Shown here piece after piece: positions 420-50,253 of a DNA stretch of 64,000 bases (its first letter is position 1; each line of letters starts with the position of its first letter). Under the pieces are notes generated by a model, which saw nothing but the letters and a program-made list of their open reading frames with translations, had not been told where the DNA came from and made no database searches. A program made the translations under genes and the position numbers. Origin of the DNA: Zootoca vivipara (lineage: Eukaryota); NCBI RefSeq assembly GCF_963506605.1, contig NC_083281.1, positions 1,240,001 to 1,304,000 on the forward strand. The letters are read 5' to 3'.

Positions 420-8967
<8,548 letters not shown>

Positions 8968-9879
8968 CCCCGCGCGGGGGAAAAAAAGCATCCGGACTTC
9001 GGGAAGCCGAAAGGATCCTGCGAAAAATAGCGGCTTCCTCTTTGAATCCCCTTCTCTCCTGCTCTCTCTCTCGTCTTCCCCACCTTTTAGATCACACAAA
9101 ATGCCAACCTTCTCTTCCCCCTTTAAGCATTGAGGTTTTGGGCACCAACTGAATGTAGTTTTTTGTTGTTGTTGTTAGTAATCCTCTGCGGCAGGATGTT
9201 GCGAAACCGGGAAAGCTGCGCGCCAAGGCATCCGTTTCTCGCAGGGCTGCTCCAACGGTGCTAACTTCTCTCGATACTGGAAACGCACGTGTTTTGTGCA
9301 AAACCGAGGGGTGCGGGGAGCAGGGGCCCAGTTGAGGCGACAGGGAGACGGAGCTCTTGGCGGTAGTCGCAGCATTTTGTTTGCTGCTTTTCCCGCTGCC
9401 TGCAGTCGCAAAAGGGCGGGAAACTCTCTTGCAGAAGCACAAAGTTTATGCAGAAAGCCTGCACGTTCTGCAGGAAGACGGCTTTTTTCGCCGCCTTCCT
9501 CGTTTACAGAAAGTTCGTAGAACTGGAAGCTTACACATTCCATAGGAAGGCGAGATGTACTGGCTTCCTAGTTTACAGAACTGTGCCAAAATACTATTTC
9601 TTTGTGTATGTGTGTGTGTGTTTCGTCTCCTTGAACATCTTGAGAAGCAGACCAAAAAAAGAAGAAAAAAAGCAGGAGTCATTTCCCATTGGCCAATCTT
9701 AGGGTGCTCTGATGGGGAAATGGCGGATTCTGCACTTCTGTATTTATTATTATTATTTTGCAAGGAGGGTGGAAGGAAGGGAAACGGGCAACATGAATTC
9801 AATCACCCCATCCCGCTAAATGTATCCTGTTAACATGGCTATAGCATTTTTATTATTATTTTTAAGCTTTTCATCTAAT

Positions 9880-12791: not shown

Positions 12792-15700
12792 TTATTTCGT
12801 CCAGCTGACTTTTGGGATGTCGTAATGCTCTGTCAAGGTGTCCAGGTGCCGATTAAAATCCTAGGAAGGGAAAGGGGAGAGAGATGCAAAATCAAGGCAA
12901 CCGAAGCGGCTTCAATCATCTCGGATTATATTTTAGAACCCACATTTAATTGTGTAACTATCAAAATACACCAGAATCAGTGGGTTTTGTCGCTCAGTTC
13001 AGCAGGCTCTGAACAAAGTGGGCACAGACCAAGGCAGTCCAACACACACAAACACAAAAAGCTTTCTTTAGCGCAGGGGTCAGCAAACATTTTCAGCAGG
13101 GGGCCGGTCCACTGTCCCTCAGACCTTGTGGGGGGCCGTACTATATTTTGAAAAAATATATATGAAATTCCTATGCCCCACAAATAACCTAGAGACGCAT
13201 TTTAAATAAAAGGACACATACTACTCATGTAAAAACACCAGACAGGCCCCACAAATAACCCAGAGATCCTTTTAAATAAAAGGACACATTCCACTCATGT
13301 AAAAACATGCTGGTTCCCGGACCTTCCGGGGGCCAGATTTAGAAGGCGATTGGGCCGCATCTGGTCCCCGGGCCTTAGTTTGGGGACCCCTGCTTTAGCG
13401 CCTCAGCCCTTGCTTCCCCCCCCCAGGACTAATTGCAGTCATCAGCAGTCGTTAACAGCCATCTACAGGTTTACCACTCCCATCAGCCCATCACCCATTC
13501 CCACCCACCCCCACCACCCTCTGCATATATATAAGGGTCTGACACTTCTGTTTCAAGTGTATCTGAAGAAGTGTGCATGCACATGAAAGCTCATACCAAA
13601 ATAAAAACTTAGTTGGTCTTTAAGGTGCTACTGAAGGAATTTTTTTATTTTACACACAAACATGTATGCCCATTTGTTTGGGGCTTCCAATTATCCGTAC
13701 TCTATAATCCCATTTTCTGCAGCCAAATTCTGCCTCAAGGGATAATCAATGGGGGGGGGGAACCCTCTTGTGCTTGCTGAGTTGCACAATATGTTGTGGT
13801 CCACTTCACTTTCCCCCGGCACCTCGCTCTCATTCCCCAGAGCGCAGCGGCCATTATGCCTCCCTACTTCAGGGAAGCCTGATCAATACTAACGGGAGGC
13901 AGATTAGCCCCGCGTTCCAGTTGGCCACGGCAAGAAAGCATAGCTTTCCGGGCACATCGCTGATGCCGGCTTGTGTGTGGCGGGTGAGCCCTTCTCTGCA
14001 AGCAAACTGGTTAGATTTGACAGCAATTCAGAGCACCGCTTGCAGCCCAAATCTGGCTATAAGAACGGGATTCGTGGGGGGAGGGGAAGAGGATGCCGAT
14101 TTTCACAAAATGTGCAAAGTTAGAAACCGCTTCTGTACAAAATACATTGCAGAGGGGGAGACACTGGCCAAGTAATTACCAGTCTGCTGGCTAGACACTA
14201 ACTTCAAGGCCCTAGCCTGCCAAACAGAAGGACTTTCCTCTGTAACGAAGGGCGCACAGCCACCTTGAGGCGAAGGAGGAGACGGGGAAATTCTCTCTCC
14301 TGACATTTGTGGATGACAACCCGGCGGAAAACCCCAACCCCCCCCACCTCTCTCTTCAAGCCTCGTCCCAGTATCCCTGAAGGAGCGTCTCCATTCCGGA
14401 CACGGGGGTCCATCTCCTTAGGGCCTTCTGGCAGTTCCCTCCCTGCGAGAAGTGAGGTTTCAGGGAACCAGCCCGCCCTGTGGAACGCTCTCCCATCAGA
14501 TGCCAAGGAAATAAACAACTATCTAACTTTTAGAAGACATGTGAAGGCGGCCCTGTATTGGGAAGTTTTTAATCGTGTTTTTAATATTCTGTTGGGAACC
14601 GCCCAGAGTGGCTGGGCAGGCCCGGCCAGATGGGGGAGGTATAAGTAATAAATTATTTTAAAAATCCCTTCCAGTAGCACCTTAGAGACCAACTAAGTTT
14701 CTCATTGGTATGAGCTTTCGTGTGCATGCACACGTCTTCAGATATACAAATAAATTCTTCTTCTTCTTCGAGCTGTACATGGAGGGGGCCACAGGGCTCT
14801 GAGGTCAGGGATGCCATGCTCAGCATGCAGACGGTCCCTGGTTCCACATTGCGGCTGAAGGACCCCGAGGCAGTAAGTGTTAACAAGGAGACAGACCTTC
14901 TCTGTCTACAGGATCCCTCACCTCTTGCCTTGCCCCTTCTCCTTCCCAGAACCTCTCCCCCCCCCACTGGCTGTCGGAGCAAGCATGTCAAGGTAGCATC
15001 TCTCCCGTGGGGCAGCGACTCACCTCGACTCTCTGCTTGTGGGTTTTGGATGCTTTCTTCAGGATCCTCTCTATTTGCTGCAGGGCAGAGGGAAAAAGAG
15101 GAGTGGTCACTTTTGTTCCTCCAAGGGCTTCCTCGGCCCACCTCCCCTGAAGCCATTTTGACAGACCTCAAATATTTCTCTGCAAAACTTTCCAATGGGC
15201 TTTGGACTGTAGGGGCTTACACCTCCCTTTTCAAATGCAAGTATCTGTTAAGCTGAGAACACTCTCAATATGCCCAAGAAGAGATTCAGGAACTAAGTAT
15301 TGACCATCTCCAAGGAATGGCCAGGCTACCCAGAAAAGGGAATTGATAAGGTATGATCAGATATCCTGGCAGACAGGAGAGAAGCAACACACTCCCATTT
15401 CTGCTGGGGACCACCTCTTTCTGTGATGTATGCCTGAAGTTTTGGGGGGTGGTCTCGAGCTACAGCGGAGGCAATTTCAAAAGTCTATATAAGAGCTTGT
15501 ACACCAATGTTCTGGGTTCCTTTCCTCCCTTCCTGCATGGGGTGAGCGGGGGCCCCTGTTGCAACAGTTTAATAAAGATCAAGCTTACTAGCTGCTTTGC
15601 TTCTCAATATTCTCCGCTTGGCCTCTGTTATTTTCTCTTACCGATAGGGAACCAACATAAGGACTCTATACGGGCTCTTGGTTACCCGACAAGGGAAAGA

Positions 15701-27800: not shown

Positions 27801-30800
27801 GTCGCAAAAGGCTGGAAGGGAGAGGATATCCCATCTAAACCAGACTGGCAAAATAAAATAAGAGAGTACGCCGAACTGGCAAGATTATCAACAAAGCTAA
27901 GAGACGTTACAGATGGAGAATTTATCAGAGAATGGGATATATACAGAGTCTATGTAAAAGAGGGACGCGGGTGCCGCTGTGGGTTAAACCACAGAGTCTA
28001 GGGCTTGCCGATCAGAAGGTCAACGGTTCGAATCCCCGCGATGGGGTGAGCTGTTGCTCGGTCCCAGCTCCTGCTAACCTAGCAGTTTGAAAGCACATCA
28101 AAGTGCAAGTAGATAAACGGTGCTTCCGTGTGCTGCTCTGGTTCGCCAGAAGCAGCTTTGTCATGCTGGCCACATGACCTGGAAGCTGTACGCCGGCTCC
28201 CTCGGCCAATAACGCGAGATGAGTGCCGCAACCCCAGAATCGGTCACGACTGGACCTAATGTTCAGGGGTCCTTTTACCTTTACGTAAAAGAACATTGTC
28301 AAAAGATCAATCTGTTGGCAGGTTTTGATTGAGCTTCAGTGCGTAAATAGGATAATTTTATAAAATAAAACTTGTAGTAAGTCAGATAACATGGAGAAAG
28401 TAAAGTTTAAGCGCGTGTTTAAGGAAATTAATTCCGGAATGCAAGGGGGTCCCTCCCAATTCTACGATTGATCTATGATCTACGAACTGTTTGTAGTCTG
28501 TTCCTCTAGGCCCCGGCGGTGTTGCCTGCGCAGGAAAACCTCCAAGGGTCTAGTAGGACTGCAGTACCGACAGGACCGCCTCTTTCCATATGAACCTACA
28601 CAGACCCTGAGATCATCTTCTTAGACCCTCCTTCGTGTTCCTCCTTGAGAGGTCCGGAGGGTGACAACATGAGAACGGGGCCTTCTCTGCAGTGGCTACT
28701 CCCCAGGGAAGATTGCCTGGTGCCTTCATTATACACCTTTACGTCCTAGGCAAAAATGTTACTTTTTAACCAGGCCTTTGGGGGATCTGGTTGACATTCT
28801 ATAACCTTTTAAAATGTGGCTCTTTTGGGGTGGTGGTGTATTATTGGGTTATTGCTTTTATTTTGATTTTATATACAGTGGTGCCTCGCTAGACGAAATT
28901 AATTCATTCCACGGGTCAATTCGTGTACCGAATTTTTCGTCTACGGAGTCCCAGTTTCCCATAGGAATGCATTGAAACTTAATCAATGCGTTCCTCTAGG
29001 CTCTGGGGGACTGGCAGCGGCATGCAACGGGGCTTCGGAGAAGGTCTCCGAAGCCCCGTCCGATGCCGGCTGTGTGCAAGGCGGCGGGGGGAGAAGCTCT
29101 CTTCTCCCAGACACCGCCTTGCCTGCCTCCCCCAACACGGAGCGCAAATTCGGAGGTCTCCAAAGTTGCACTCCGTGCTGGCTGTGCGCGGCGAGAGGCG
29201 ACGGCGGGGGGAAGAAAGACCTTCTCCCGCCGCCGTCTCTCGCCTGCCTCTCCCGACACGGAACACAACTTCGGAGGTTTCCGAAGTTGCGCTCCGTGTC
29301 TGGGGTGCGGGGCGAGAGGCGGGGGAAGACCTCCTCCTGCCGCCACCTCTCGCCTGCCTCCGAAGTTGCGAAACCTCCGAAGTTGCGTTCCGTGTCAGGG
29401 TGCGGGTCTCCCCCTGCCTCCGCCCCAGGCACGGAGTGCAACTTCGGAGGTCTCTGAAGTTGCGTTCTGTGTCGGGGGAGGCAGGCGGGAGGCGGCGGGG
29501 GGAGAAGGTCTTCCCCCGCCCCCGCCTCACACCCCAGGCACAGAGCGCAACTTCGGAAACCTCCGGAAGTTGCGTTCTGTGTCGGGGGAGGCAGGCGAGA
29601 GGCGGCGGCGGGGGACGGAGCCAAATCGCAGCAGGCGATGCTTGCCCCCGCCTGTCTTCCCCGAGCCAAGGGGAAGACAGGCAGGGGCAGCCACCGCACC
29701 GCCGCGTTTCGGCTCCGTCCCCCTCCCTGGCAAAGGGAGATTAGCTGTCAGCTTCCCGCGCTGACAGCTGATCTTCCTTTGCCGCTTTCTATGGCCGCGC
29801 TTCGTAAGACGAAGCGGTGGTCATAGAAAATTTTGTCGTCTTACGAATGCCTCGCGCAACGCAAAACTCTTTCGTCTAGCGAGTTTTTCATTGTGCGAGG
29901 CATTCGTAAAGCGAGGCACCACTGTATTGTGATCTTTTTTGTGAACTACCCTGAGACCTCCGGGTATAGGACGTTATATAAATTCAAATAATAATAATAA
30001 TAATAATTATAATAATAATAATAATAGCAGAGAGAGGCCTCTTTCTACCTCTGGGTTTGACTGACATTGTTTCCACCCAGCTTTTGTGTCCACGGATATA
30101 CACCACGACTTCCACAAAAGCAAATCTCCTCTCCGGCAGCTTCTGCAGCTAGTATTCAGAAACAGACAGCCTCCGACTATGGAGATAGAGCAGCGGAGAA
30201 CATACCTCTTCGATGTTTCTGACCCAGTTCCGAATGTTTTCAAACGACTTCTCGTTGGTGATGTCGTACACCAGCATAATGCCCTAAAGAGCAGAAACGG
30301 GGAGAGGCAACCAATCAAAAGCTGATTTTTTTTCGATTCCGGAGGGATTTGTGGGCTGGAGGTGGGAGAAGCTTGAACCCAGGCGTTCCCAACATGACAC
30401 AGAAAGCAAGAGGGGCTCGGCACCGAGCCGGCTCTAGGGGGCAAAGAGTAGCACAGCGCATGAGGGTATGCAGAGGGATGGGGTAAGAACGAGGGTGCGC
30501 TTAGAGTCGAAGTTTTCAGTCCTCAACCCGAAGGTGGAACTCACCACCAGCATCTTGAGAGCGGGGGGAGGGAGAATTGATGGAGGGGCAGCGGCAAAAG
30601 AGGAGGTCAGCAGTGACCCACGTCAGACCTGCACCCACCATGGCTCCTCTGTAGTAAGCCGTCGTGATCGTCCGGAAGCGTTCCTGCCCAGCGGTGTCCC
30701 TGGAGGAAAGGCACAGGAAGAGTAATGACGACAAGCAGCCAGGCAGGGGCCCCGTCATCTTGCCCTCAAGTTACGCTGGCCGAGAAGCTCTTAACGCGGG

Positions 30801-35519: not shown

Positions 35520-35592
<73 letters not shown>

Positions 35593-35703
35593 AGGTAGGT
35601 AGCTGTGTTGGTCTGCCATAGTTGAAACAAAATAAAAAAAATCCTTCCAGTAGCACCTTAGAGACCAACTAAGTTTGTCTCTAAGGTGCTACTGGAAGGA
35701 ATT

Positions 35704-35743
<40 letters not shown>

Positions 35744-49099: not shown

Positions 49100-49760
49100 C
49101 GTAACTCTTCTCCTCCGGAAACCAACGTGTCCTGGCCGGCGGCCGTTCTAGCTGCGCGCATCTCTATGACGACGCTGCTCCCCTCTTACGTCACAACGGA
49201 AGCGGAAGTGCCGGTGTAAGGACTCTCGCTGGCGGGCCGCTCCGAGTCTTTTCCTCACTGAGGTAGAAAGGATTTTAATTTGTATTGGCTTTTTAAAAAC
49301 GCGTTTTCGACCCCTGGTAATATTTAACGGCGTCCGCCGCCTCTCCTATCGGCGTGGCTTCGGCGGAAGCTGTGTGTGCGCCGCTCTATCCCATTTCAAT
49401 TATTATCTAATGCTTCTTCCCTTCCCTTCCCCCCTTCCGTCCTTCAGCAGCGGGTCACGCCCCCTTTACCGTTCGTGATCTCGCGATATCTGTCAGGGCG
49501 GGACGAAGGCTTCCCCCCTTTCTGCGCAGGCGCGTGACTAGCTCTTCCCTTCCCTTCCCTTCCCGCGGCCGTTTCTTTAAAAGTGGGCGTGGTTCGAATT
49601 CTAGCGCCATGGCAACAGCGGGAAAAAATAGAAGGGGGCGGGGATGGAATTCGAATAGGGAGGCCTAGTTGATTTTGTAATAGGCGGGGTGGGGGTAAAC
49701 GTGCGTCGTGACGTCACGGCGATGACGTCATTTTGCACGGCCTAGTTAGTTGCGTGTTCG
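49100..49760. promoter_or_regulatory. Orphan CpG island / promoter with no attached coding gene
   Basis: CpG-rich; TACGTCA 49187-49193, tandem ETS CGGAAGCGGAAGTG 49197-49210, TCTCGCGATA 49479, GC boxes, half X-box CCATGGCAAC ending 49616, two full CREs TGACGTCA at 49709 and 49723. Confidence 0.6.
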
Positions 49761-49774
49761 GTGCTGTTGCATCC

Positions 49775-49805
<31 letters not shown>

Positions 49806-49980
49806 GCAGTAGTATACCGCCCTATACCTGTAGATCTCAGGGAGGTTCACAACATGAAATTAAAATATACAAAGGACAAAATACGTAATAAAAACAAAAA
49901 CAGAGGCGTGGTTGATTTTGAAATAGGCAGCAGAGGGAGACGTGTCGTGATGTCATGGCAATGATGTCACTTTGCACTGT

Positions 49981-50018
49981 GTATCTGAAGAAGTGTGCAT
50001 GCACACGAAAGCTCATAC
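49981..50018 (+). ncRNA. Minimal type I hammerhead ribozyme motif (Penelope-like element associated), intact copy
   Basis: GUAU-CUGAAGA-A-GUGUG(CAUG)CACAC-GAAA-GC-UC^AUAC: conserved core CUGANGA and GAAA, 5-bp stem II, stem I GUAU/AUAC, palindromic AGCU in place of stem III. Confidence 0.75.
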
Positions 50019-50253
50019 CAATGACAAACGTAGTTGGTCTCTAAGGTGCTACTGGAAGGAATTTTTTTTATTTTGTTCCCACTGCTTAGCTATCTGTGTG
50101 TTCAGTGTAGGTTGCAACCACCACCGCCACCACCATCATTACTATTATTAATATACACCCCCCCCATACCTGTAGATCTCATAAAATTAAAGACAACATA
50201 AAATTAAAATATAAAAAGACACGATAAACATAAAAAACAGGGGCAACCCAATA

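Follow-up and report, generated by a model that had tools for sequence, protein, structure and literature searches.

In a 64-kb stretch of the Zootoca vivipara genome (64,000 nucleotides in full, hereafter the window), we describe the hammerhead of a Neptune-type Penelope-like element (PLE); the copy that harbors it is probably a run-off cDNA of the front end of an uncut, likely capped RNA, inert when alone. The motif is a real minimal type I hammerhead of a kind already described for PLEs, and its ribozyme class, its PLE home and its AGCU form are all already in print. A publication placing the ends of PLE copies at a capped start on helix I was not found in the literature searched, outside which subscription journals largely fell.

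The Hammerhead Motif and Its Insertion

The letters and the position of the motif (Table 1) are exactly those given in an earlier note on this DNA. The CUGANGA, GAAA and UH elements of the core are present in type I order, with C3–A9 at 49985–49991 and G12–A14 at 50007–50009. A 4-bp helix I joins 49981–49984 to 50015–50018, and helix II (49993–49997 with 50002–50006) is closed by the G10.1-C11.1 pair (G49993-C50006) and preceded by an unpaired extra A (A49992) between positions 9 and 10.1. Helix III is absent, its place being taken by AGCU (50010–50013), palindromic at 15.2–16.2. Because C17 is at 50014, the cut is predicted between 50014 and 50015. Both helices, as well as an extension of helix I past one bulge that the earlier note had described, were given by MFE and centroid folds, the stability of the fold lying within the shuffled range (z = -0.70). 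The minimal type I hammerhead of a PLE that had been claimed was recovered with its core, stems, AGCU remnant and place in the pLTR, as a minimal form that lacks the canonical helix III and loop I–II contacts and for which an Rfam scan returned nothing at gathering scores.

The 100-bp insertion carrying the motif has a target duplication of 5 bp (CACTG on both sides) and is delimited by an empty counterpart at ~49726–49770, a paralogous site stemming from an older local duplication. It contains neither a TATA box nor an ORF, and its own 5' end lies at -5/-6, not at -4 (C3 = 0). The copy had been thought to seed an intron; it is, however, intergenic, with an AP1-medium-subunit gene on one side and the next transcription start 3.5 kb downstream, and it had no reads of its own in three RNA-seq runs (one study, ~6% of each read), where depth in the flanking bins was near zero. 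In one run, approximately 97% of the reads that cover it show a different base at 50030 and, therefore, come from other copies.

Three copies are present in the window, as the earlier note had counted, against a chance expectation of 0; they have ~95 bp in common, the other two are slightly damaged, and no same-sense tandem partner is near the intergenic copy in these 64 kb, again in line with that note. By context, one copy is sense-intronic, one antisense-intronic and one intergenic. The gene hosting the two intronic copies is presumably FAM32A-like. Exons of the AP1-medium-subunit gene were located at 39–45 kb (translation scan, 100 of 122 frames), and spliced reads delimit a + strand gene from ~53473, which, by its translation, we take to be ELAVL1. 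Positions 12800–64000 hold a compact cluster of genes that, by their translations, we take to be FAM32A (-), TIMM13 (+), RAB8A (-), AP1M1 (+) and ELAVL1 (+), with RAB8A and AP1M1 head to head. A CpG island at 49100–49600, with ETS-like motifs and a possible donor at 49263, lies 4 kb upstream of the ELAVL1-like start and had no reads in the three runs. An intronic position of the window copy behind an upstream first exon at this 49.2-kb island was considered, given the GT at 49263, but is not supported, no spliced read being listed in the three runs (one study, ~6% of each). A GC-rich array of direct and inverted repeats occupies 28950–29760.

Table 1. PLE-related features of the window, numbered from its first nucleotide
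Feature	Position	Strand	Remarks
Minimal type I hammerhead (helices I and II, core, AGCU remnant of helix III)	49981..50018	+	Sequence and folding; min-HHR features as described in PMC4209133
14-nt palindrome of stem-loop II	49993..50006	+	Predicted non-catalytic duplex of two copies; 292 inverted junctions in the genome centre here
Whole PLE insertion, 100 bp	49980..50079	+	From about the putative transcription start to the proximal (short) RT start
Left target-site duplication CACTG	49975..49979	+	Last G may double as the element's own -6 base
Right target-site duplication CACTG	50080..50084	+	
5' UTR part of pLTR	50019..50079	+	Reaches the short, T-rich 3' end; tail absent
Second, longer copy	13393..13651	+	3' UTR and TATA-like box retained; U for C11.1 at motif 13563 (+); antisense, last intron of the presumed FAM32A-like gene
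Third, short copy	14660..14748	-	Outer helix I pair broken (motif 14741, -); sense, last intron of the presumed FAM32A-like gene
Inverted pair of the same PLE family	35590..35708	.	Truncated downstream of the hammerhead; a tail on one arm; first intron of AP1-medium-subunit gene

The Parent Element and Its Family

A parent with RT and GIY-YIG had been predicted, and walking upstream from the longer window copy, through RT and GIY-YIG fragments, led to it in this genome. It forms 3,030-bp head-to-tail units with an identical hammerhead once per unit (20 loci fetched), and its intact ORF encodes 901 aa with an RT (PF00078 at 433–577), a CX4CX2C linker and a GIY-YIG domain (PF01541 at 799–840). 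The hammerhead is present in both pLTRs; 137 nt separate it from the ATG further downstream, and a TATA-like box precedes it by 31 nt. A single ORF with RT followed by a C-terminal GIY-YIG and a CX2-5CxxC linker between RT and EN is the Neptune-type EN+ layout, as given for Neptune/Nematis in PMC8557442; partial tandems, an inverted 5' copy and a 30–40-nt tail on one end are likewise found in this family. An open frame of 925 codons occurs in many of the 150 listed out of 1,358 protein-search candidates, and the nearest named proteins (among the top named matches listed) are turtle PLEs with 61–70% identity. As a separate observation, the parent protein shares 65–70% identity with turtle PLE proteins, a high value for lizards vs. 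turtles. Loci L062–L081 contain many intact 925-codon frames and 100% identical tandem neighbors. The family is young, and it looks currently active.

The very high genomic count that the earlier note had foreseen is borne out by 17,230 exact motif 34-mers, as compared with 0 for the reversed control (1.44 Gb, 48 contigs), while a 22-nt anchor just downstream of the motif has 35,069 exact copies. Ends were called against 63 references in a sample of 148 copies picked by the exact anchor from the first 4 Mb of one contig. Copies stop at two 3' positions, ~95 and ~130 nt further down the element from the motif, i.e., ~35 nt apart; 70 of the 148 belong to divergent inverted pairs, and 33 of 36 such pairs combine one long and one short end, which is the known PLE tail. 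Family sequence is abundant in RNA on both strands, and depth over the 5' part of the parent ORF is very low (three runs). Strand bias as a reading of the dual-strand depth over the motif was rejected, as a few loci dominate.

Several loci deserve separate mention. The array at L076:820-3242 consists of four 598-bp units, nearly identical and arranged head to tail, which come from an element with an internal deletion and share the joint of that deletion; each has a TATA box and a hammerhead, and the array ends in a tail. This retrozyme-like layout is what copying round a circle, or else repeated jumps between templates, would produce. L077:1061-1175 holds a natural dimer, two hammerheads of the same sense at a distance of 71 nt, together with an inverted arm. 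At L062:7410-7487, just past the stop codon, 11 reads (three runs) skip 78 nt with GC..AG ends, possibly representing a 3' UTR intron or a subfamily difference.

Conservation of the Core and Stems

Core and stems are retained in 76 of the 91 sampled motif-spanning copies, variation being concentrated at N7 (17) and at the CpG C11.1-G12 (11). In 72 long copies, variation at a level of at least 10% affects 2 hammerhead columns out of 38 (N7 and the CpG C11.1), 22 of 41 upstream and 8 of 42 downstream, and the sole core change at the subfamily level is N7, the one free position. Two compensatory pairs distinguish the motif from a turtle motif (by eye), with none inside the young lizard family. 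A loose-pattern search yielded 745 sites vs. 301 in the control, and of 10 odd sites fetched, about 5 seem to belong to older families in which the core is unchanged and the stems differ. The earlier note had named a core no more conserved than its flanks as a finding that would speak against it; the core is more conserved than the flanks, and the proposal passed this test. Core and stems are conserved across subfamilies; between families, the core is kept and the stems covary.

Loci L257–L260, L262 and L154 represent older, decayed hammerhead families with the same core and different stems, L260 resembling the turtle type. A hammerhead-like string in several dozen of the listed loose-pattern matches was rejected as another repeat in which helices I and III are unfit. 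A repeat other than the PLE (L142–L171, e.g., L143:1500-1533) carries an in-frame hammerhead-like string whose helices I and III do not fit, probably by chance; by its endonuclease start, we take it to be RTE/BovB-like.

It is extremely improbable that the hammerhead is vestigial, i.e., kept as a promoter/initiator or a protein-binding RNA that never cuts, given the confinement of subfamily-level change in the core to its free position, the compensatory pairs relative to the turtle motif and the older families that keep the core with other stems. The anole homologue, moreover, is reported to cut with protein (PMC11167929). What would suit such a role is the overlap of the motif with the putative start site, the fair conservation of the downstream region, the spread of Naiad PLEs without hammerheads (as described in PMC8557442) and the in vitro insertion of the anole element, reported to be unimpaired by hammerhead mutants (PMC11167929).

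Where the Copies Begin

Numbering upstream from C3 (= 0), 25,378 copies reach 0, 18,998 reach -4, 13,572 reach -5, 10,697 reach -7, 8,905 reach -11/-12 and 8,044 reach -16/-17, so that the loss per nucleotide runs 7%, 28.6%, 11%, 4% and 2%. The largest one-base loss, 28.6%, falls just before G2.4, the first base of helix I, where 5,426 of the 18,998 copies begin exactly. In 3,608 of these 5,426, a G directly precedes G2.4 (66% vs. 31% expected). The ends proved true at 26/30 and 29/30 inspected loci (overlapping sets, 17 common), across several subfamilies and in solo as well as inverted copies; solo copies without an inverted arm make up 16 of 30 inspected loci and have the same ends. Of 66 long copies, 63 have a TATA-like box beginning 31 nt before G2.4, which is the usual TATA-to-start distance. 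At the 7 loci with a clear target duplication, the extra G belongs to the duplicated bases in 4 cases and falls outside them in 3; at 17 of 30 inspected loci, it is preceded by A. In the 148-copy sample, 32 ends are spread across -12 to -1 (0.031 per nt vs. 0.004), only 4 of them at -4, with no sharp peak. An extra G is described as a mark of capped full-length L1 insertions (PMC11702581); a G would also be added by terminal transferase or by folding back one base on helix I.

The short copies might instead be ordinary 5'-truncated products begun at the 3' pLTR, with RT stopping or folding back at the hammerhead helices and thereby generating both the pile-up and the G. The fixed 31-nt spacing of the TATA-like box is left unexplained by this scenario, and we consider it unlikely, even though the cDNA can self-pair via helix I and the palindrome, and ends are also raised inside helix II (25 over 15 nt in the 148-copy sample, 0.013 per nt vs. 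0.003–0.004 outside). The 292 perfect palindromic junctions centred on the stem II palindrome and the joining of the two helix I strands in 3 of 30 junctions likewise point toward fold-back, and self-priming at palindromic junctions has been proposed (PMC3846280). Fold-back, however, predicts more templated bases beyond the G, which are mostly unseen, and the same ends occur in the inspected solo copies and in 14 of the 78 solo ends, at -12 to -1, of the 148-copy sample.

The cut site, on the other hand, has no pile-up. In one subfamily, 89 of 15,116 copies leave the element by transversion at C17, with 63 at A1.1 and 89 at U16.1 on either side, and about 11 of the first 30 departures at C17 are point changes; none of the 148 sampled copies starts exactly at the cut. 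Copying of cut RNA would place the start of insertions at A1.1, where they do not begin. Ligated circles, which leave no end, are compatible with this absence. Among the sites listed in three standard RNA-seq runs, read ends did not pile up at -4 or at the cut, which is a weak test for cut ends. A splice acceptor at -5 (pyrimidines and AG in three subfamilies) was rejected as a cause of the copy ends, as no exon from further upstream in the element is spliced to it and AC stands in its place in the youngest subfamily. In D. virilis Penelope, a TATA-less internal promoter with a start well upstream of its hammerhead has been described (PMC2377424). Taken together, the copy ends in Z. vivipara suggest an uncut, likely capped RNA front end as the source, and the lone window copy is therefore probably inert.

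Would Dispersed Copies Cut?

The earlier note had envisaged dispersed copies as active halves that cut host pre-mRNAs when two of them meet in cis or in trans. Intactness of the sampled motifs (76 of 91), the abundance of family RNA on both strands and the existence of natural same-sense pairs (L077, L076) would favor such activity, which we nevertheless regard as very improbable. In nearest-neighbor calculations, which leave out tertiary and Mg2+ terms, the double hammerhead is modeled at -11.1 kcal/mol, as compared with -13.6 for two monomers and -28.0 for a duplex of the stem II palindrome, and the 4-bp AGCU helix (helix III) contributes -2.5 kcal/mol; for the natural 71-nt pair, the respective values are -7.1 vs. 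-29.2 kcal/mol. Two copies are thus predicted to pair via the 14-bp palindrome, not as a double hammerhead. Published tests agree in direction with the modeled energies: min-HHR monomers are reported as inactive and their dimers as cutting poorly (PMC4209133), and the anole PLE hammerhead cuts only with the element's protein, uncut RNA being the main substrate and template (PMC11167929). Furthermore, the inverted arm adjoining 70 of the 148 sampled copies would pair with them, and the window copy is intergenic and without reads. The idea that the stem II palindrome nucleates the dimer was rejected, as the 14-bp duplex crosses the shared helix III and the palindrome is absent from the turtle motif.

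Proposed Mechanism and Its Implications

In the scheme that we prefer, with short copies derived from the uncut front end, Pol II would start at or within a few bases of G2.4, and the hammerhead would therefore constitute nucleotides 1–38 of the mRNA. Of the internal sites, RT would use the one closest to the 5' end as its start, a choice reported for the anole protein in vitro (PMC11167929), and from there run ~100–135 nt to the cap, the product being inserted alone or as an inverted pair. Selection would keep the ribozyme only in the parent. There, helped by the protein of the element or acting as a 5'+3' pair separated by 3 kb, it would cleave a minority of the RNAs; each cut would take away the cap together with the first 34 nt and might yield unit-length RNA for circles.

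A more far-reaching version, plausible enough to state but held tentatively, is that the Neptune-type mRNA, starting on the first hammerhead base, may give rise to a retroviral-like strong-stop cDNA (from cap to internal RT start). Thousands of these would be inserted prematurely as short copies, and the rest would jump to the identical 3' repeat and rebuild a pLTR that carries the promoter. Cutting at 34 nt from the cap, with the help of the protein, might then act as a switch (decapping or unit-length RNA for circles), and the stem II palindrome both as a brake on cutting and as a place of cDNA joining. What PLE hammerheads do and how pLTRs arise are posed as questions in PMC8557442 and PMC11167929. 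The family is young and rich in intact copies, and its dated insertion ends, which number in the tens of thousands, enable base-level predictions, i.e., a start at G2.4, an uncut template and a cut 34 nt from the cap. The findings also argue that the intact motifs in host RNA, of which there are tens of thousands, mostly do no harm.

Comparison With Known Systems

The core and the AGCU remnant are the same as in the min-HHR of the turtle Chrysemys picta (Fig. S3 of Cervera and de la Pena, 2014, PMC4209133), a figure with no lizard among its rows. The extra base at 9/10.1, the G10.1-C11.1 pair, the G-C palindrome at 15.2–16.2, the 4-bp helix I, the pLTR location and the mostly single dispersed copies are features that the same article describes as common to the min-HHR of metazoan PLEs. 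Relative to the turtle motif, the lizard motif has compensatory pairs at 2.3:1.3 in helix I and 10.4:11.4 in helix II (by eye), C17 in place of U, and a palindromic loop II that the turtle lacks. With at least 17,230 identical copies, the lizard family exceeds the 4,000–9,000 motifs reported in coelacanth and Xenopus (PMC4209133).

Among lizard PLEs, PAc (Poseidon of Anolis carolinensis; Frangieh et al., 2024, PMC11167929) also carries its hammerhead in the pLTR, has two 3' ends ~35 nt apart (tail) and shows no RNA reads at the cut, as far as described there; its template is uncut RNA, a point on which we infer that the Zootoca family is alike. Unlike PAc, the Zootoca family has the CX4CX2C linker of the Neptune/Nematis type, and it has its hammerhead and the two RT starts within the 5' UTR, clear of the ORF; the available text on PAc gives neither mapped 5' ends of copies nor a start site. 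The pLTR of Adineta vaga Pen2a (Arkhipova et al., 2013, PMC3846280) resembles that of Zootoca in its TATA box, inverted 5' copy, tail and palindromic inverted junctions, and has an initiator-like TCACT in addition to the TATA box. A putative promoter and an antisense self-priming model were put forward for Pen2a, whereas the ends of Zootoca copies point to a sense template starting from helix I. Finally, non-LTR retrozymes (Li et al., 2026, 10.64898/2026.07.22.740005) are described as PLE-derived hammerhead units, a form matched by the four 598-bp units of L076; unlike them, the window copy has no tandem units and represents a single 100-bp stretch of an autonomous element.
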